A stretch of 64,000 bases of DNA, taken from positions 2,084 to 66,083 of the forward strand of contig DATARD010000380.1 of assembly GCA_036264355.1 (NCBI GenBank). The letters are read 5' to 3'. Source of the DNA: Thermoanaerobaculia bacterium (lineage in GTDB: Bacteria; Acidobacteriota; Thermoanaerobaculia; Multivoradales; UBA5704). Below, piece after piece: positions 4,151 to 60,034 of the stretch; the first letter of the stretch is position 1, and every line of letters starts with the position of its first letter. A program made the translations under genes and the position numbers. Below the pieces are notes generated by a model, which was not told where the DNA came from, did no database searches, and saw only the letters and a list, made by a program, of their open reading frames with translations.

Positions 4151-4624
4151 ATGAACCTCAAATTCATCGCTGCCTTATCCCTTCTTGCCTTTCTCGCCTA
4201 TCTGGCACTCAAGGCCAAGCTGCTCACCGCCAAGGCCCACAAAGAGATCGCCGCCAATGATCCGGAGTCTGGGTGGAGGCATGCGCTTCTGGCTGCCGAA
4301 TCTCGACTGGTCAAGTGGAAACTCGAGGCCGGCCCCAGATCGATCGCCGGCTGGAAAGGCGAGGCCAAGAGAATTCGGAGCCTTTTCGAGACCATCACGA
4401 CCCTGCATCCTGCTGTTGCCGGCGCTCAGGGAGATCCGGCAGCCGTCACAGCCGCCTGGGGCGCGGCGATCAGCGCCGGCAACTTCAACCGCAAGCTCAG
4501 GCGCGCGGCGACGACCCAGGCAGAAGAGTATCTAGCCGCGAACCGCGCCAGGTTTGCGAATGACTTTCCTCTCGGCACTCCAGCCGAATACAGACAGCCT
4601 ACGCTCCCTACCCCTTTCAGCTAA
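4151..4624 (+). CDS. Hypothetical membrane-anchored protein on a low-GC insert
   Basis: ORF 4112..4624. Preferred start is ATG 4151 (MNLKFIAALSLLAFLAYLAL, a single N-terminal hydrophobic helix) behind AGAGGG. The 5' part is clearly AT-richer than its surroundings. I recognise no family. Confidence 0.5.
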   Translation: MNLKFIAALSLLAFLAYLALKAKLLTAKAHKEIAANDPESGWRHALLAAESRLVKWKLEAGPRSIAGWKGEAKRIRSLFETITTLHPAVAGAQGDPAAVTAAWGAAISAGNFNRKLRRAATTQAEEYLAANRARFANDFPLGTPAEYRQPTLPTPFS

Positions 4625-53188: not shown

Positions 53189-53210
53189 CGCGCGTAATGT
53201 TCCCCGTAAC
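53189..53210 (+). promoter_or_regulatory. Second copy of the conserved block, CGCGCGTAATGTTCCCCGTAAC
   Basis: See 52149-52170. It contains the ATG (53197) that opens the listed ORF, which argues that this ATG is not the real start. Confidence 0.4.
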
Positions 53211-53259
53211 CCGGGTATGGCAGACTCGGTATCGTCAATTTCACGTCTCTCTCAAAACT

Positions 53260-56200
53260 ATGCGCTCACTTCCTCTCCGGATGCCGGCGATTCTGGTCCA
53301 TGCCTGGTCGGACCCCGCGGTCGAAGTCTGCCCGCCGGAGACCGCGGCGGCTCTCCTGGCGCTGCCCGGTGTCGTCCGGCTCGGCCCGGGACGCTTCGCG
53401 ATCGTGCCGGTGGCGAACGATCCGGGGGAGATGGAGACGGCGCTGCGCTGTGGCGAGCGGTTGCTGGCGGCGCGGGACGGCGATCGCCGGGCGGTGCTCC
53501 TGCTGCCCGTCCAGGTGCGGCTCGGCCTCGGACCACGGTCGCCGGCGGCCGAGCTGATCGCCGAGCCTCTGCTCGACGACCTGGAGCAGCAGGTGCCGAT
53601 CCTGCCGTGGGGCGCGGTCTATTTTTCCGGCTATGCGATGGCGCGCGCCGAGTCGCGGCTGGAAATGAAGATGTGCGGCCTCTATGAAGGGCCGTCGGGA
53701 ACCCAGGTCACGCTGTTCCGCCCGCTCCGGCCGCGCGACGACGTGCGCCCGTGGCACAACACGCATCTGGTCGACCGGCCGCTGGAGTATGTGCCGCGTC
53801 CGGATCTGGAAAGCGAGCTGGCGGCGGTCTCGGAGACGGCGGTGCTGCGGATCACCGGCGCGATGGGCTGCGGCAAGACCCGGCTGGTGTGGGAAACCCT
53901 GGGACCGGAGCGCCGGAAGACAGAAGGCGGCGGCGCCTTCTGTCTCTGGGTGAGCCTGCGCGGGCGGCGGGACGAGCCGGCCCGGCCGCTCGCGGCGTTG
54001 CGGCGGCAGCTCGTGCGGCTCGCCGGCAAGGATGCGCTCGCCGGGCTGATCCAGGCCGAGGCGCCGCCGTCCGATCTGCCGGAGCTGCTCGCCAAGTCGC
54101 TGGTGCTCGCCAGCCGCCGCGCCGGCGCTCCCCTGCGCCTGGTCTGCGACGACGTGCACGTGGCGGATGTCGAGACGCAGAGACTGATCGCGGGCCTCGC
54201 CGCACACCCCGAGGCGGGGAGCTCCTTCTCGCTGGTGCTGGTGGGCCGGCCGCGTACATTCTTCCAGACGCTTCAGGCGTTCCAGACCCTCCCGGCGGTG
54301 TGGGCGGGCTGTCCGCAGGTGGCGGGGGCGCCCGAGGTGATCGTGCCGCCGATGGCCGCGGCGCCTCTCGCGGCGCTCGCCGGCAAGCTGTTCCACGATC
54401 TCCTGATGCCGACCGAGGTGAAGCAGCAGATCGTGGAGGCCTCGGGCGGATTCCCGCTGGCGCTCGAAGAAGAGCTGTCGCGGATGATCCAGCGCCGCCA
54501 GCTCCGGCACCACGGCAACTTCTTCGTCAGCGGCCGCCAGGACATCGACTTCGAGCCGTCGTTCCATCTCATCCAGGAGATGTGCGCCGAAGCCCGCGCG
54601 CTCGGCGATCCGACGCCGCTGCGCCTCCTCGCCCTGGCGGACACCGCGGTGCCGTCGTTCGCCCTGGCCGAGGCGGCTCTCGCCTGCGACGCGGCGCCGC
54701 CTCCGGGCTGGGAAGCGCCCTTCCTCGCCGGCGGCTGGCTGCGCCGGTCGCCGTCGCCCTGGGGGATCGGCGTCGATTTCGCCGCCACCGCATACGGCCG
54801 GGCGATGGCGGCGACGGTGGATCCGGAAGCCGCGCCGGGCATGCGGAGCGCGCTGGGCGAGGTGCTCTCCGCGGCGGACGACCGGCCGCGCGGGCTGTGG
54901 CATTCCTACCGCCTGCTCTCGGGCGGACCCGGCGCCGTGCCGCGCATCCTCGAGCTCGCCCGCGAGCATCCGCAGAGCCTGCCGGCCCGCGAGGTGCTCG
55001 ACGGTCTCGCCTGGGAGCTCGCCGCGCACCGCGAGCGCGGCGGCGATCAGGCGACCGAGATCCAGATCCTCTGGCTGCTCCTCCCGCTGGCGCGCCGCCT
55101 CGGCCGTCTGGAGCGCTTCGAGGGCGACGTCGCGCGGGCCGTCGAGCTTGCGCAAGCCGAGCCGCGCAAGCTCCTCGCCTTCTCCGGCCTCAAGGCGGAT
55201 CTCGATCTCCAGAAGAGCCGCCTGGCCGACGGCGAGCGGACGCTGCGCGCCGTTCTCGATCAGGTGCTGGACGCCGATCCTTCGCACCAGTCGTTGCTGC
55301 TTTTACAGCTCGGCCGCCTGCTCGCCCGCCAGGAACGGCACAAGGAGGCCCGGCACCTGTTCGAGAACCTCCTCGCCACCGTCGAGGAGCGCGGCTCCAC
55401 GGCGCTCGCCGCCACCTGCCGCTTCCACCTCGGCAACATCGCGCTACGCGAAGGGCGGCTGCGCGAGGCGCAGACGTACCACCGCGAAGCCATGCGGATG
55501 CGCCGCAAGGAGAAAAACCTCAAGGCGCTGGGATCGTCGCTCTCCGCGCTCGGCGCCGTGTACTCGACCCTGGGAGCCTTCCCGCGGGCGCTCTGGTACT
55601 ACCAGGAGGCCGAGCGCGTGCTGCGCGAGTATGGCGAGGACGGCGAGGAGAGCTTCGCGCTGTTCGGTCTCGGCCGGGTGCTCGGTCTGTTGGGCGACGC
55701 GACCTCGGCCGCCGAGCCGTTGCGGCGCGCCCTGGCCCTGCGCGAAGGGAAGGCCGACGCGGTCGGCGAGGCGCTGGCCCGCTTGCAGGTCGCGGCGAAC
55801 CACGCCGATCTGCAAAATCTGGACGAAGCGCTGGCCGAGGCCCGCCGCGCCCACTTCCAGCTCAGCCTGGCGCCGGAGAGCGGCATCCTCGGCGACGCCG
55901 AGCAGCTCCTCGGCCGCATCCACTTCCTGCTGCAACAGCTCGACGCGGCCGGCACGTCGTTCGCGACGGCGCTGGAGATCCACGAGCGCCACGGCGACCA
56001 CGGCGCCGCATTGCGCGACCGGAGCTGGCTGCTGGAGACGGCCCTCGCCAACGGGAAGGAGACGGAGATCCGCCGGCTCTGCCGCGAGCTCGAGGCGGCG
56101 CTGGAGGCCGGCGTGCCGCCGCTCGGCGGCTCGTTTGCCGTCGTCGACTACCGGCTGGCCCGCGGCTGGGAGTGGCTGCGCCTCAACGGCCGCGGCGGCA

Positions 56201-56358
56201 CCGATCCGGCGCGCTTCTTTGCCCGCGCCTACCAGACCCTCCTCGACACGGCCTCGCCGCTGCCCGAGGGCCTGCGCCGCCGCTTCCTCCTCCAGGTGCC
56301 GGAAAACGCCGCCATCGTCGAAGCCGCCGCCAGCCGCCACTTGGTCAGCCAGGCGTAG
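53260..56358 (+). CDS. STAND/AAA-type NTPase with C-terminal TPR array and ~190-aa N-terminal domain of uncertain nature
   Basis: Walker A is ITGAMGCGKTRLV (53851-53889). Walker B is LRLVCDDVHVAD (about 54133-54168). Multiple TPR-like repeats fill the last ~350 aa. Start is uncertain (53197, 53260 or 53281). Confidence 0.75.
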   Translation: MRSLPLRMPAILVHAWSDPAVEVCPPETAAALLALPGVVRLGPGRFAIVPVANDPGEMETALRCGERLLAARDGDRRAVLLLPVQVRLGLGPRSPAAELIAEPLLDDLEQQVPILPWGAVYFSGYAMARAESRLEMKMCGLYEGPSGTQVTLFRPLRPRDDVRPWHNTHLVDRPLEYVPRPDLESELAAVSETAVLRITGAMGCGKTRLVWETLGPERRKTEGGGAFCLWVSLRGRRDEPARPLAALRRQLVRLAGKDALAGLIQAEAPPSDLPELLAKSLVLASRRAGAPLRLVCDDVHVADVETQRLIAGLAAHPEAGSSFSLVLVGRPRTFFQTLQAFQTLPAVWAGCPQVAGAPEVIVPPMAAAPLAALAGKLFHDLLMPTEVKQQIVEASGGFPLALEEELSRMIQRRQLRHHGNFFVSGRQDIDFEPSFHLIQEMCAEARALGDPTPLRLLALADTAVPSFALAEAALACDAAPPPGWEAPFLAGGWLRRSPSPWGIGVDFAATAYGRAMAATVDPEAAPGMRSALGEVLSAADDRPRGLWHSYRLLSGGPGAVPRILELAREHPQSLPAREVLDGLAWELAAHRERGGDQATEIQILWLLLPLARRLGRLERFEGDVARAVELAQAEPRKLLAFSGLKADLDLQKSRLADGERTLRAVLDQVLDADPSHQSLLLLQLGRLLARQERHKEARHLFENLLATVEERGSTALAATCRFHLGNIALREGRLREAQTYHREAMRMRRKEKNLKALGSSLSALGAVYSTLGAFPRALWYYQEAERVLREYGEDGEESFALFGLGRVLGLLGDATSAAEPLRRALALREGKADAVGEALARLQVAANHADLQNLDEALAEARRAHFQLSLAPESGILGDAEQLLGRIHFLLQQLDAAGTSFATALEIHERHGDHGAALRDRSWLLETALANGKETEIRRLCRELEAALEAGVPPLGGSFAVVDYRLARGWEWLRLNGRGGTDPARFFARAYQTLLDTASPLPEGLRRRFLLQVPENAAIVEAAASRHLVSQA

Positions 56359-56364
56359 CCGGTC

Positions 56365-56688
56365 ATGGCACCCACCGTGCTCTCGGTCGACGGTGATCTT
56401 TCTCCGGACTTCCTGAAAACCCTTGAATCTCTGGAAGCGCTGGACGACCGCGAGCTGTGGCGTCTGGCCGGCGAGGTCATGTCTCTGGAGGCGAGCCGAG
56501 AGCTTGAGAGCCTGCATCTCAAGATGGGTGACCAAGGTCTGAGCCCGGAGGAAGACGCCGCGCGCGCGCGGCTCATTCAAGAGTACGAGCGCTCGATGCT
56601 GATCCGGGCCCAGGCGGCAAAGCTCCTCAAAGATCGAGGGCGCGACATCTCCAGGCTCCTTTCAGTTGCGCGGGAACCATACAGGTAA
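56365..56688 (+). CDS. Small helical protein, paralogous to the C-terminal domain of 34788..35201
   Basis: LDDRELWRLAGEVMSLEASRELESLHLKM..LSPEE..LIQEYERSMLIRAQAAKLLKDRGRDISRLL aligns with LNEEELWRAAQNRLSEESRLQLEALNLKQ..LTPAE..LIEQYDQAVLLRAEAARLLKERGHDISSLL. Confidence 0.5.
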   Translation: MAPTVLSVDGDLSPDFLKTLESLEALDDRELWRLAGEVMSLEASRELESLHLKMGDQGLSPEEDAARARLIQEYERSMLIRAQAAKLLKDRGRDISRLLSVAREPYR

Positions 56689-56946
56689 AGAGAGCGCGCT
56701 TCTCTTTCGTGCTCCTCCTCGCTGCGCCGGAATACACCTTTGGCAGACGGTGACTACGAATACGGGCAGGAGGATGGTCGAGTGTCCTCTGCTCGTTGGA
56801 TTCTATTTTCAAAGAACGCCGTTCCGCTTCGCCCAGGCTTCGGCCGGCTCGGAATCGGCCGCGGGCGCTTTACCCAGGCCCATTCCGGGCTGACTCTGCG
56901 TCTGGCGGCGCGGCAGAGCCCTGCGCTGCTCCAGAACCGATCCGCT

Positions 56947-57253
56947 CAAGCCATCCGAAACGTCTGACGGCTTGAAGTCCCCCTGGTCACGACGGAATGG
57001 CGCCGGTCAGACCGTCCGCGGCTTCTGGCGCTCCAGAATCGGCTTGGCCAAGCCGTCCGAGTTTTCTGACGCTCTGGAATGGGGCTGATCAAGCCGCCCC
57101 GATCTTCTGATGAGTCGGAATGGCTCTGCTCGAAACGTCATCGGTTCATGGCGAACGGAAACGGCGTCATCCAAGCCATCGCCCGCTTCTGGTAATGAAG
57201 AATGGAGCGGCTCAAACCGTCGTCGCGGCTCTTGAGGCTCTACCGCGGGCGCC
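56947..57253. repeat. Degenerate tandem repeat, six units phased at exactly 41 bp (57008-57253) plus 1-2 out-of-phase units upstream
   Basis: Unit anchors CA(A/G)(G/A)CC lie at 57008, 57049, 57090, 57131, 57172 and 57213. Consensus is CAAGCCGTC-N6-TTCTGR-N6-GGAATGG-N7. Confidence 0.65.
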
Positions 57254-57761
57254 GCCGGTCGATCCCGTAGCACAACATCTCGCGCCCGATGTGCTCGATG
57301 CGCTTCAGCAGTTTTTCTCCGATCCGCTCGACGAGGCGGATGGAGGCGCGGTTGTCCGGGTGGACGAGACTGATCACACGGTCTTTCTTCCAGACGTTGA
57401 ACGCATGGTGCAGAGCGGCCTGTGCGGCCTCGCTTGCATAGCCCTGCCCCCACCACCGCCGCGCCAGCCGCCCGGCGAGCTCGAACCCGGGCCAGCCTTC
57501 CGGCTCGAAAAAACCGGCGAGCCCCACGAACGAGCCGGTCTCCCTGTGCTCCACCGCCCAGGTGCCGGTTCCCCGAATGTACCAGTGGCCCACGACGTAG
57601 GTCAGATGCCGCCAGGCCCGGCCCCGGTCCCAGGTCTCGCCGATGTGGCGCATCACCTCGGGGTCCGCGTGCAACGCGGCGTAGTCGTCGAGATCGGCCT
57701 GATGGAGAGGCCGAAGCCACAGCCGTTCGGTGGTCAGGGTCGGGATGACGGAATTCTCCAT
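57240..57761 (-). CDS. GNAT-family N-acetyltransferase (RimJ/RimL-like)
   Basis: Start is ATG 57761. TERLWLRPLHQADLDDYAALHADPEVMRHIG ... RRWWGQGYASEAAQAAL. The listed 350-aa ORF is an upstream read-through. Confidence 0.85.
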   Translation of the reverse strand: MENSVIPTLTTERLWLRPLHQADLDDYAALHADPEVMRHIGETWDRGRAWRHLTYVVGHWYIRGTGTWAVEHRETGSFVGLAGFFEPEGWPGFELAGRLARRWWGQGYASEAAQAALHHAFNVWKKDRVISLVHPDNRASIRLVERIGEKLLKRIEHIGREMLCYGIDRRRPR

Positions 57762-57890
57762 GGCTCTCTCCTTTTCGGTCCGCTTGTCCCGACTCTGGCA
57801 AAGGTGCAGACTGCCCCGGGGGCTCTCGATTTCTGACATCCGGTCAATGGCTGACCAGACACCTCTCGACCCCCGGAAAGAATCTGCCCC

Positions 57891-58007
57891 ATGATCCGTG
57901 CTCTTCTGCTGCTGGTGCTGGCCCTCGTCAACCCCGACGCGGGTGGCCGTTTCGACCCCGACGGCACCACCACCGACGCGGGCAACCGTTTCGACCCGAA
58001 CGGCTGA
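57891..58007 (+). CDS. Candidate 38-aa peptide MIRALLLLVLALVNPDAGGRFDPDGTTTDAGNRFDPNG
   Basis: My own translation. ATG start, weak GGAAAG 10 nt upstream, hydrophobic leader, two DAGxRFDxxG motifs, and a stop directly after the second motif. It is below the size cut-off of the ORF track. Confidence 0.35.
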   Translation: MIRALLLLVLALVNPDAGGRFDPDGTTTDAGNRFDPNG

Positions 58008-58148
58008 TGGCGCGTAGTCGCCGGGTCGGTCCGCCGTTCCCTTGTCCCTGTCCTGGCAAAGGGGCAGACTGCCCCGGGGGTTCTCGATTTCTGACACCTG
58101 GTCAATGGCTGACCAGATACCTTTCGACCCCCGGAAAGGATCTGTCCT

Positions 58149-58265
58149 ATGGTCCGTGCTCTTCTGCTGCTGGTACTGGCCCTCCTCGACCCCGACGCAG
58201 GCAACCGTTTCGACTCCGACGGCACCACCACCGACGCGGGTGGACGTTTCGACCCCAACGGCTGA
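58149..58265 (+). CDS. Candidate 38-aa peptide MVRALLLLVLALLDPDAGNRFDSDGTTTDAGGRFDPNG
   Basis: Second copy, with frame, length and stop position preserved. 5 of the 11 differing codons are synonymous. Confidence 0.35.
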   Translation: MVRALLLLVLALLDPDAGNRFDSDGTTTDAGGRFDPNG

Positions 58266-58303
58266 CGGCTCGCAATTCGTGGTTTGACACACTCTTACTT
58301 CAT

Positions 58304-58328
58304 GGGGGCATTTTCGCCCCCTATTTCC
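58304..58328 (+). terminator. Intrinsic terminator-like hairpin after the peptide modules
   Basis: GGGGGC-ATTTTC-GCCCCC followed by TATTTCC. There is a T-rich tail only in the plus orientation. Confidence 0.45.
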
Positions 58329-58366
58329 GCTACAATGCCGATTAAAGATGGTATGGAGGGGATGAG

Positions 58367-59903
58367 ATGGGCAGACACTTCAGCCGGGAAGCCCTGCTGC
58401 GGCTTCTTCGCGGGCCGGCCAGCGAGGCCGAGACGACGCGCGCCATCCGGCATGTGATGGAGTGCCGCCACTGCCGGAGGGTCGGGGCCGAGTGCCTGCT
58501 TCAGGAGAAGGTGGGAGATGTCCGCAACCCTCTCGTGGCGATCCTCCAGGCGGACGCGAACGGTTGGATCGAGGACATGGAGGCCGGGATTTGGTGGAAC
58601 GAGATCAAAGACCTCGGCCCGGAAAGCCAAATCACCAAGATCCGTTCGACCGCTGCCCTGCAGAGCCTGCAGGTGTTCGAGGAGATTCTGGCCGACACGA
58701 GAACCACAGCTCTCTCGGACCCCTTCCTCGGAGAGAGCAAGGCACGTGTCGCTCTAGTGGTCGCGGATCTCCTTCCGGAGCCCCACAATCCGAGGGCCCT
58801 CAAGAATGACCTCCGGGGAAAAGCCATGATGGCCGCCGCGAACTGCCGCCGGCTCGCGGCGGATTTCCCGGGTGCGGCCTCGGCGATCGAAGAGTCGCGG
58901 CGCTATTTGGCTCAGGGCACGGGAGATCCGGGCCTGAAGGCCGGGCTCCTCTCGATCCACTGCTCTTTGTGCACCGATCTCGGTGATTTCGAAAAGGCAC
59001 TGGCCTGCGTCCGCCGAGCTGTGAAAATCTTCCGGGAGTTGGAGGATTGGCAGGCTCTCGCGCACAACGCCGTCCTGGAGGCTAACTGTCTGCTCGCCGC
59101 CAACCAGACGGCGGAAGCGATCGAGAGAGCCCACTTCGCCCTTGAGCGCATGCCGCTCCATGAGACACGGCTTGAGGTTCTGGCGAAGCTCATCCTCGCC
59201 GAGGGCCTCATCATCTTGGAACGGCCTCTGGAGGCGCGCCCACATCTCGCAGACGCAAACTCACTCTGCAAGAAGTCGCAGCTCGGGTTGCAGCTTCTGG
59301 CCCTCTCGGTCGAAGCGCGTCTTCTGGACGCCCTCGGCAGCGTAAGGGAATCGGAAAAGCTCTTTCGCCAGACGGTGAAGGCCTTCTTTGACCAGGAGAT
59401 GTACAAGCAGGCCTTCCTCACCCTGCTGACCCTCTTCGAATGCCTCGTCCGCCGCGGCGCGCTCGACAAGGCCGCGGCTCTCTGCGAGGAGGCGATCGCC
59501 GCGACATCGCAGACGGGAGAGGCGTGCAACGAGCAGATCCGGCGGGCCTGGGAGGAGCTTCTGGCCACGGTGCGGGTGCGCCAGCTCAGCGAGAGCGAGC
59601 TGAGTCAGGCACGGCAGTATCTCGTCCGCAACTGGAGCGTGGCGGCCGGCACGTTTCCGGCTCCCGCGGGTGGAGGCCGGCCCGCCATGGCCTCCCTCCC
59701 CTCCCGAGCTCCCGCCGCCTCCACCCTTGCCGGACACGGAGGCCTCGGCGCCCGCCAGCTTTCCGGAGGCCCGCGAAGAGTACGACCGGCGGCTCGTTAC
59801 GGCGGCCCTGGAAAAGGCCGGCGGCAACCTCAGCGAGGCCAGCCGCCTGCTCGGGATCTCCCGCAACACGCTCAAGGCACGGCTGCGTCAGTACGGGCTG
59901 TAA
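58367..59903 (+). pseudogene. TPR-containing regulator with N-terminal Cys/His motif and C-terminal Fis-type HTH, interrupted by an apparent frameshift
   Basis: ORF 58367..59938 carries HVMECRHCRRVGAEC and TPR-like helices but ends in Arg/Gly/Pro-rich junk. The overlapping frame (open from 59604, ORF 59670..59903) ends in EEYDRRLVTAALEKAGGNLSEASRLLGISRNTLKARLRQYGL. Confidence 0.55.
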
Positions 59904-60034
59904 GCGCCATGGCTTGCTTCCCGCTGTTGCCGATGTAGCATCCTGGCTCAGGGCTTGCTTGTCTCCGAGACGGTCTTGCGCCGTGTCTCACCCGTGCTAT
60001 AGGATGCCGCCGAGCTTGTGACGACTTTCACAAA

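Follow-up and report, generated by a model that had tools for sequence, protein, structure and literature searches.

What is encoded by a short, tandemly repeated segment (positions 57783-58328) in a stretch of 64,000 nucleotides (nt) from a Thermoanaerobaculia bacterium (GenBank contig DATARD010000380.1; the whole stretch is referred to here as the window), and what might it do for its host? A preliminary description of this DNA had pointed to two modules of 258 bp, each with a leader and a small open reading frame (ORF), and had suggested a secreted signalling peptide with its own sensor or regulator. Our comparison with related genomes indicates that the segment belongs to a widespread cassette of peptide and regulator genes that has not been described before, nor has its leader RNA, and for this cassette we propose a function from the sequences of its members. 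A secreted peptide signal with a dedicated sensor also ranks first in our own weighing of the evidence, if tentatively. Relatives' loci and family proteins are referred to by the L- and P-numbers of this analysis.

Tandem small genes encoding repeat peptides

The segment consists of two tandem copies of one small transcription unit. A direct repeat (57778-58014 and 58036-58272) extends over 237 nt with 87% identity at a spacing of 258 nt, and Tandem Repeats Finder (TRF) delimited the array to 57783-58269 with a period of 258, 1.9 copies and 88% matches. Together with an ORF scan this bears out the modular structure proposed earlier: each module has a conserved leader of ~108 nt followed by a 38-codon ORF, and the duplicated unit includes promoter-like boxes, leader, ORF and ~25 nt past the ORF. 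Peptide gene 1 (MIRALLLLVLALVNPDAGGRFDPDGTTTDAGNRFDPNG; 57891-58007, plus strand) and peptide gene 2 (MVRALLLLVLALLDPDAGNRFDSDGTTTDAGGRFDPNG; 58149-58265, plus strand) each specify 38 aa and a stop, with frames and sequences as originally quoted, and both were called as genes by the Joint Genome Institute (JGI) pipeline on a matching 40-kb metagenome contig. Between the copies, 13 of 108 leader positions and 14 of 117 positions of the coding sequence (CDS) differ, which confirms the equal divergence of ~12% that had been noted; the codon differences were confirmed as well, with five synonymous and six non-synonymous changes within the 38 codons (ratio of non-synonymous to synonymous change, pN/pS, 0.62). 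An 18-mer, CGTTTCGACNCNRACGGC, occurs four times and in the modules only, at a chance expectation of 0.15, and none of 100 shuffles reached four occurrences. Searches with the patterns CTTGY-N-CASACT and GGTCA-N5-TGACC and with a covariance model of the leader (see below) found no further module copies in the window, and no other sampled locus has two leaders.

With the two window peptides concatenated as query we retrieved 26 homologues of 44-112 aa, all of which are annotated as 'hypothetical' and have no Pfam domain. All of them begin with M-x-R and a hydrophobic stretch followed by two to four repeats of DAG(G/N/S)xFDP(N/D)G, and 23 of the 26 have DP(N/D)G as their C-terminal end. A profile search of 1.84 billion representative proteins yielded 309 clusters at E<=1e-3 and 63 at E<=1e-10. 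Carrier genomes are metagenome-assembled genomes (MAGs) of Holophagales, Thermoanaerobaculia and Gemmatimonadales. Among 154 small members, two repeats were counted in 29, three in 87, four in 33 and five in 5. A strongly hydrophobic 10-residue window lies upstream of the repeats in 150 of these members (the stretch being 10-13 residues long), the stop codon follows exactly after the last Gly in 123, and the residue preceding DP(N/D)G is F, W, L, I, M, A or Y. The family decapeptide reads D-A-G-(G/N/S)-x-(F/W/L/I/M)-D-P-(N/D)-G, with short variable linkers between copies. Two apparent matches to the terminal-repeat DNA pattern, in L009 and L017, one from the genome scan and one from the metagenome scan, were discarded as chance, that in L009 falling in an acyl-CoA ligase motif. 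Pfam and NCBIfam models did not match any member of the repeat-peptide family, and the repeat motif (FDPNG, FDPDG, RFDPNG or DAGNRFDP) was absent from the searched literature.

Codon use was analysed in 41 repeat units from 17 distinct genes. Gly3 is present in all 41 units and is specified by all four codons (GGA 15, GGC 11, GGT 9, GGG 6), Asp7 (GAC 29, GAT 12) and Gly10 are likewise found in 41 of 41, and Pro8 in 40. Since the invariant residues of the repeat use varied synonymous codons, the coding question can be regarded as settled: judged by family-wide amino acid conservation and synonymous codon use, the small ORFs are protein-coding, as had been proposed, and those in the window are genuine genes of an undescribed small-protein family. 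Three pairs of relatives gave pN/pS values of 0.60, 0.71 and 0.16 (the last for L014 versus L020), and substitutions fall mainly on positions 4-6 of the repeat and on the linkers and leave the scaffold unchanged. Two earlier suggestions about the repeat core did not hold. The 18-mer had been considered for a role at the RNA level; it is the coding sequence for RFDP(N/D)G, and because its codons vary freely across the family it is not an RNA motif. The proposed resemblance to EF-hand-like calcium loops found no support, DPxG being the sole common element.

The hydrophobic-DP(N/D)G unit is not confined to small proteins. It also builds the secreted proteins P0169, P0174 and P0236 (640-780 aa), which contain dozens of repeats in a layout of signal peptide, N-terminal domain, repeats that are often followed by K/R, and C-terminal VDEWDxxVVKRG repeats, as well as the lipoprotein-like P0199 and P0223 (~200 aa). 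None of these five proteins has a Pfam or NCBIfam match, and they look like a second undescribed protein class with the same repeat. Elsewhere in the wider family, P0178 and P0203 have classical signal peptides ending in AxA. In a Gemmatimonadales MAG (L007, 169-2411) Cys-bracketed repeats (DAGCRFDPNGLC) lie beside radical SAM and proprotein-convertase P-domain genes; this variant, found once and on a short contig, could represent a branch of the family with modified peptides.

A structured leader between conserved flanking signals

A comparison of the window with L001/L004 shows stronger conservation in the ~110 nt before the ATG than in the CDS, and in 14 core leaders the elements follow each other in a fixed order: CTTGYC, 17 nt, CASACT, the 5′ strand of a helix P1, a T-rich stretch ending in TGAC, a hairpin P2 (GGTCA, loop A-T-G-G-n, TGACC), a spacer, the 3′ strand of P1, GGAAAGGA, ~8 nt and the ATG. 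P1 encloses P2 within a 5′ untranslated region (5′UTR) of ~80 nt, and GGAAAGGA, a Shine-Dalgarno sequence, is located directly 3′ of P1 at a fixed distance from the ATG. The 5′UTR of module 1 (57813-57890, plus strand) contains P1 at 57816-57822/57870-57876, P2 at 57840-57846/57852-57858 with the loop AATGGC, and the Shine-Dalgarno sequence GGAAAGA at 57875-57881 on the same strand. In module 2 the 5′UTR (58071-58148, plus strand) contains P1 at 58074-58080/58128-58134, P2 at 58098-58104/58110-58116 and GGAAAGGA as Shine-Dalgarno sequence; GGTCAATGGCTGACC is found at 57842-57856 and 58100-58114. A palindrome that had been described in the leader, GCCCCGGGGGC, turned out to be the 5′ strand of a long-range helix, the partner of which (CCCCCGG) is located just upstream of the Shine-Dalgarno sequence.

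P1 occurs in several versions, namely CCGGGGG/CCCCCGG (window type), GAGAGAC/GTCTCTC (L006, L010, L013, L014 and L020), CCGGGTGGCG/CGCCGACCCGG (L026) and CCCGCGGA/TCCGCGGG (L016), and in the last two leaders both helices are retained despite a changed sequence. P2 likewise covaries in its outer pairs (CTGG/CCAG, CGGG/CCCG, CCGGGG/CCCCGG and GCGGATCA/TGATCCGC), its arms are flipped in L011, and L016 changes core pairs and keeps an AUGGA loop. In a MAFFT alignment, which was not fitted to the structure, 87% of the cells pair versus 29-49% in slid controls and five pairs change on both sides, a degree of covariation that was reached by none of 500 shuffles; in a covariance-model alignment of 18 leaders, which leans towards the model, 8 of 14 pairs change on both sides. 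With 12 G-U pairs versus 6, the plus strand is the favoured one. P1 enclosing P2 was recovered in 7 of 11 single-sequence folds with z-scores of -1.4 to -3.1. The minimum free energy (MFE) fold of module 1 contains both helices, and module 2 has an MFE z-score of -3.07, with none of 200 shuffles folding as well. We further built a covariance model from 14 leaders and searched ~290 kb, where it matched exclusively directly 5′ of peptide start codons. It scored 86.8 bits for module 1 and 94 bits for module 2 and also matched leaders outside the training set (L027/28/30 with 93 bits, L032 with 62, L026 with 34.5 and L016 with 22). Rfam had no match to the two leaders (57783-57890 and 58041-58148) even at E<=10, and a scan of 56300-58800 at this threshold gave two sub-threshold chance matches, both elsewhere. 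Judged by conservation, covariation and covariance-model matches in relatives, the leader is, as proposed at the outset, a conserved functional element, and more precisely a conserved structured 5′UTR that is not in Rfam.

Promoter-like boxes of the form CTTGTCC-N17-CAGACT are found at the start of both modules on the plus strand, at 57783-57812 (CTTGTC at 57783-57788, 18 nt, CAGACT at 57807-57812) and at 58041-58070 (CTTGTC at 58041-58046, CAGACT at 58065-58070). The promoter that had been proposed as TTGTCC-17-CAGACT stands in so far as the boxes are present and, as CTTGYC-N17-CASACT, are kept with their spacing in all 14 core leaders; they are, however, no canonical sigma-70 match, and nothing in this region passed a strict scan for canonical promoters and terminators. 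Their conservation suggests a promoter role for CTTGYC-N17-CASACT. A sigma-54 reading of CTGGCAAAGGTGCAG was rejected because the GG-GC separation is 9 nt instead of 12.

At its 3′ end the two-module unit is closed by a terminator-like hairpin, GGGGGC-ATTTTC-GCCCCC followed by TATTTCC (58304-58328, plus strand), and module 1 has no hairpin of its own. The window hairpin fails the strict T-run terminator rule. Of the 13 relatives' loci that were read, 12 (all but L026) likewise have a GC-rich hairpin with pyrimidine-rich tail behind the peptide stop, and its stems covary between lineages (GGGGGC/GCCCCC, GAGGGCGG/CCGCCCTC and GGGGAGCC/GGCTCCCC), in agreement with the earlier view that the hairpin closes the unit. 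In these alignments, boxes and hairpin are supported by conservation and not by consensus. Just 3′ of the hairpin lies TACAAT (58331-58336, plus strand), a -10-like hexamer for the downstream regulator gene; TAnnnT-type hexamers (TACAAT, TATACT, TAGAAT, CATAAT and others) are found at the equivalent site in most relatives, L026 being a locus where none is evident, and the hexamer probably serves as a -10 box. Attenuation of the regulator by translation of the peptide appears unlikely because of the 38-nt gap between stop and hairpin and the regulator's own -10 box. Between peptide stop and hairpin there is also a GCACACTC-like box (58284-58296 in the window, with equivalents in L001, L027, L006 and L013) that resembles the leader's -10-like box GGCASACT.

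The TPR regulator and other neighbours

The gene downstream (58367-59903, plus strand) encodes a regulator with a zf-HC2-like N-terminus (H4, H29, C33 and C36), a TPR superhelix and a C-terminal Fis-type HTH_8. The four zinc-motif residues are invariant in 60 sequences, and the match to PF13490 (zf-HC2) is weak (E 0.0026, 18.2 bits at a gathering score of 22.2). Pfam models TPR_12, TPR_MalT and HTH_8 match the protein. More than 150 homologues were found, annotated merely as 'TPR repeat protein' or 'helix-turn-helix domain-containing protein', with lengths of typically 508-530 aa, or ~1000 aa as tandem fusions. The AlphaFold2 (AF2) model (pLDDT 85) is an all-helical superhelix with a disordered linker before the HTH, and no transmembrane-like window was found in the sequence. 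In Foldseek searches against the PDB the best matches were peptide-binding TPR superhelices of LGN/Pins, Rap with bound pheromones (8rtc, 8rsv, 8rte, 4gyo, 4i9c) and MalT domain III, at E 1e-4 to 2e-3, a template-modelling (TM) score of ~0.5-0.6 and ~13% identity. The sequence profile touches LGN, RapJ (E 2.4e-5 over 175 residues) and AfsR and, in the HTH, NtrC, ZraR, FleQ and Fis. As modelled, the regulator has the fold of a peptide-binding TPR sensor, a fold that is in itself no proof of membership in the RRNPP family of peptide receptors. The TPR_MalT and HTH_8 matches and the profile hits recall MalT/AfsR-type TPR sensors and NtrC/Fis-type outputs, but the cassette regulator has neither a STAND NTPase nor an AAA+ sigma-54 activation domain nor a receiver and consists of zinc-motif head, TPR and HTH only. 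A defence-system reading was dropped, PADLOC having given generic TPR and HTH matches only.

Neighbourhoods were read from gene tables and tblastn. The regulator gene lies directly downstream of the peptide gene in L001-3, L006, L010/18 (two tandem copies), L011, L013, L014 (two copies), L020, L021, L024, L025, L026, L027-31, L032 and the P0004 and P0016 contexts. In L032 it is a fusion of 995 aa with two HTH_8, and in the P0004 and P0016 contexts it has ~1004 aa. Only regulator remnants are present in L004/5 and L012/15, where the HTH_8 tail, or the last ~100 TPR residues and the HTH, is left (L004 7111-7470, L012 1441-2505). Since the regulator is largely deleted in these two lineages with peptide and leader intact, the regulator is where the cassette repeatedly decays. 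In L008 and L016, which encode divergent peptides, the peptide gene is likewise followed by one for a TPR protein. L022 (2703-4562) has a Cys-containing peptide variant (4311-4562, plus strand) in divergent orientation to the gene of a ~495-aa protein that combines an N-terminal XRE HTH_3 with C-terminal TPRs, and a second TPR ORF lies convergently downstream. Because of the neighbours in L008, L016 and L022, the constant partner of the peptide is a TPR protein, whatever its DNA-binding domain.

In the window itself the uninterrupted ORF (58367-59938) specifies a 523-aa product without the HTH, and HTH_8 has to be read from another frame (59670-59903). A one-base shift of frame becomes apparent near 59655, immediately behind ...NWSVAAGTF, when the window sequence is aligned with the L001 orthologue, which is intact (518 aa). 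JGI and Logan assemblies both yield the 523-aa product, so that the frameshift may be real and not an assembly error. The window peptides, in turn, are of the shortest type in the family and have no G-rich/amphipathic segment, which usually takes up 20-35 residues between hydrophobic stretch and repeats; comparably short peptides are P0023 and that of L021, the latter beside an intact regulator. With shortened peptides and a frameshifted regulator, and with the peptide gene duplicated as well, the window cassette is atypical and may be a decaying or rewired copy.

On the other side of the unit, divergent from the peptide gene, lies a GNAT acetyltransferase gene (57240-57761, minus strand; Acetyltransf_3, PF13302, E 5.2e-34). 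A GNAT gene was found divergently upstream, ~130 nt from the peptide ATG, in the window, L001-5, L010/18, L011, L024, L027-31 and the P0016 context, and as a remnant in L025, and was not seen in L006, L013, L014, L020, L026, L032 or the P0004 context. Linkage of the peptide to both neighbours had been claimed; it is strongly conserved for the TPR/Fis-HTH regulator, but for the GNAT in part of the family only, which makes the latter an accessory member of the cassette. Among PA3944-like GNATs (RimJ/RimL, MccE-CTD and BlmB relatives) the closest solved relative of the window GNAT is PA3944 (E 5.8e-20), and BlmB and TlmB are also among its relatives. The substrates of PA3944 include polymyxin B and colistin, peptide antibiotics that it acetylates on an amine (PMC8072286), and by analogy acetylation of the cassette peptide for tuning, quenching or self-protection is plausible.

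Further neighbours were restricted to single lineages or to the window. A gene for an extracytoplasmic function (ECF) sigma factor lies two genes from the GNAT in one lineage (L028 3709-4173, L029 and L030) and is not conserved in other loci or the window; it is of interest given the regulator's invariant anti-sigma-like HxxxCxxC motif, and no partner sigma factor is conserved near the cassette. Directly upstream of the window cassette, 53197-56688 (plus strand) encodes a 1053-aa AAA_16 and TPR (STAND-like) protein followed by a 107-aa ORF without family match, a gene pair that other loci of the cassette do not conserve. A gap on the downstream side of the GNAT gene (56932-57153) contains five weak direct repeats of ~38 nt with 41-nt spacing and 63-71% identity, which TRF did not report at a minimum score of 30, and a sub-threshold COG2908 RNA match (E 0.19) falls inside them at 57092-57125.

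Possible roles as exported signal or regulated effector

Sensing of exported oligopeptides by cytoplasmic TPR receptors counts as a hallmark of Firmicutes and their mobile elements, and tools for their detection are run on Gram-positive genomes; to our knowledge, peptide-pheromone/TPR-receptor pairs are so far known from Firmicutes only. The RRNPP family (Rap-Phr, NprR-NprX, PlcR-PapR, Rgg-SHP, AimR-AimP) has been described by a five-point signature, namely a pro-peptide of 10-100 aa, export by Sec (SignalP) or PptAB, a receptor of ~250-500 aa, TPRs in the receptor, and adjacency of both genes (PMC10075063). The cassette pro-peptides are within this size range in the window (38 aa), and most family members have 44-112 aa. 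M-x-R with a hydrophobic stretch, present in 150 of 154 members, might mediate export, and the window peptides have no clear cleavage site. TPRs are indicated by Pfam, AF2 and Foldseek alike, and peptide and regulator genes are neighbours in nearly all informative loci. The typical receptor length of 508-530 aa is just above the range, some receptors being tandem fusions of ~1000 aa, and the L022 partner, at ~495 aa, lies close to its upper end. As to homology with Rap, NprR, PlcR, Rgg, PrgX or AimR, only generic TPR similarity was found, and on sequence homology the cassette is not a member of RRNPP.

The likeness is one of architecture. In both cases a small pro-peptide gene with a hydrophobic N-terminus adjoins the gene of a soluble TPR regulator, the conserved motif is located at the extreme C-terminus of the pro-peptide, and the TPR superhelix of the regulator resembles Rap structures in Foldseek searches. 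Tandem repeats of the cassette type have a parallel in some Phr pro-peptides with tandemly repeated pheromones (PMC11343458), and the L022 partner has the RRNPP-type layout of N-terminal XRE HTH and TPR in a non-Firmicutes metagenome contig. The cassette differs in its hosts, which are diderm Acidobacteriota and Gemmatimonadota and not Firmicutes or phage, in the C-terminal Fis-type HTH_8 and N-terminal zf-HC2-like zinc motif of the regulator, in a 10-mer repeat with invariant scaffold, and in a structured 5′UTR and a GNAT neighbour that have no RRNPP counterpart. Among diderm bacteria, the cyanobacterial PatS/PatX/HetN-HetR systems provide another comparison, in which small peptides, some with a hydrophobic N-terminus, act through a short conserved motif, C-terminal or nearly so, on a cytoplasmic DNA-binding regulator; there, however, the motif is RGSGR, the receptor HetR is not a TPR protein, and there are neither tandem decapeptides nor an equivalent adjacent gene pair.

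We favour, with a probability of roughly 0.4, an RRNPP-like reading by analogy, in which an exported multi-copy pro-peptide is sensed by the neighbouring TPR regulator. The pre-peptide would be exported through Sec and cut into short units ending in DP(N/D)G, and these units, or the free C-terminal one, would be re-imported and bound in the groove of the TPR regulator. With the peptide bound, the regulator would change transcription, probably including that of the peptide gene itself. Variable repeat positions 4-6 would set specificity, the GNAT might acetylate a free amine of the peptide so as to tune or quench the signal, and the structured 5′UTR might lend stability to the short mRNA or control its translation. 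That the stop after Gly is strict, that positions 4-6 change fast and that the TPR partner is kept across two regulator architectures would fit a regulator that recognises a short peptide in free form.

Several observations weigh against peptide sensing of this kind. The hosts are diderm, and a peptide of ~1 kDa would have to cross the outer membrane twice for cell-to-cell signalling. Neither an Opp-type importer nor a processing protease is conserved near the cassette. A regulator that does no more than control the peptide gene would be just as likely to lie next to it. The regulator departs from RRNPP receptors in its C-terminal Fis-type HTH, its invariant anti-sigma-like zinc motif and its length, and its similarity to Rap is that of generic TPRs, LGN and MalT scoring equally well. 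The occurrence of the DP(N/D)G repeat in large secreted proteins would fit a structural or binding role, the TPR protein then being a plain regulator. As regards the window, its peptides have a 10-residue hydrophobic stretch and no obvious AxA cleavage site, and with its frameshifted regulator the circuit may be non-functional here. Finally, the near-invariant P2 core GGTCA-N5-TGACC could be a DNA operator instead of, or besides, an RNA stem; covarying outer pairs, G-U pairs, the flipped arms in L011 and the core changes with retained AUGGA loop in L016 speak against a pure operator.

Nearly as likely as a sensed peptide is a regulated effector, in which the small exported repeat peptide would itself be the cassette's output, active in the periplasm or extracellularly (for instance in contacts with the envelope or matrix, in ion binding or in antagonism), the TPR/HTH protein a dedicated transcription factor that senses something else, and the GNAT an enzyme that modifies the peptide or protects the producer. 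The 640-780-aa secreted and 200-aa lipoprotein-like proteins suggest a structural or binding repeat, the Cys-bracketed repeats of L007 and L022 a small folded loop, and conserved boxes, the palindromic P2 core and a strong terminator would fit a tightly regulated, highly expressed small gene. That self-resistance acetyltransferases (BlmB, TlmB, PA3944) are among the GNAT's relatives and that no importer is conserved nearby would also agree with an effector. On the other hand, the TPR regulator is the sole consistent link, with no exporter, immunity gene or maturase, and retention of a TPR partner under a different DNA-binding domain points to the relation of TPR and peptide itself. In 80% of members translation stops strictly after the last Gly, as would suit a receptor that recognises a free C-terminus, and the fast positions 4-6 (pN/pS 0.6-0.7 between close relatives at an invariant scaffold) fit recognition as well.

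Two further readings fall well behind. The peptide had also been proposed as a RiPP-like precursor (ribosomally synthesised and post-translationally modified peptide), in which the hydrophobic leader would be followed by decapeptides as multiple cores that are modified, by GNAT N-acetylation or by enzymes encoded elsewhere, and released. We consider this improbable because no maturase is conserved, nor is a protease or transporter conserved across loci; the multi-core layout with short variable linkers, the GNAT beside the peptide gene in a subset of loci, the radical SAM and proprotein-convertase P-domain genes next to the L007 Cys variant and a nearby non-ribosomal peptide synthetase (NRPS) cluster in L004 would favour it, but the GNAT is absent from the seven loci listed above, the radical SAM neighbour is a single case, and there is no NCBIfam or Pfam match to a RiPP precursor. 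Least probable by far is an untranslated element, either a duplicated minus-strand leader of the GNAT gene or a plus-strand small RNA with a fortuitous ORF. The equal divergence of leader and ORF in the window at a pN/pS of 0.62, the higher conservation of the leader than of the CDS between species and its conserved structure would be expected of such an element. Amino acid conservation is, however, family-wide with free synonymous variation, frame and stop position are kept in more than 150 members, the Shine-Dalgarno sequence GGAAAGGA keeps its distance from the ATG, and the G-U pairs favour the plus strand; moreover, structure in the leader does not preclude coding by the ORF. The minus-strand version, which had been raised for the segment, is refuted by leader and peptide occurring without a recognised GNAT in L006, L013, L014, L020, L026 and L032.

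Compared with Pfam, NCBIfam, Rfam and the searched literature, three elements are new, namely the DP(N/D)G peptide family, the zf-HC2-like/TPR/HTH_8 regulator family and the structured leader of ~80 nt, each of which can now be defined independently of its function; the searched literature held nothing relevant on Thermoanaerobaculia and quorum sensing. Genes of 38-75 codons of the DP(N/D)G type are easily overlooked in annotation. A more far-reaching claim, which we regard as doubtful at present, is that the cassette represents the first RRNPP-like family outside Firmicutes, with a multi-copy decapeptide ending in DP(N/D)G as signal, a TPR/Fis-HTH/zinc-domain protein as receptor and a dedicated 5′UTR RNA controlling the pheromone mRNA. 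If true, such a family would be widespread in soil Acidobacteriota (Thermoanaerobaculia and Holophagales) and Gemmatimonadota. Conserved in hundreds of Acidobacteriota and Gemmatimonadota lineages, the peptide/TPR-regulator cassette would provide a concrete, testable candidate for peptide signalling in abundant and poorly cultured soil phyla.

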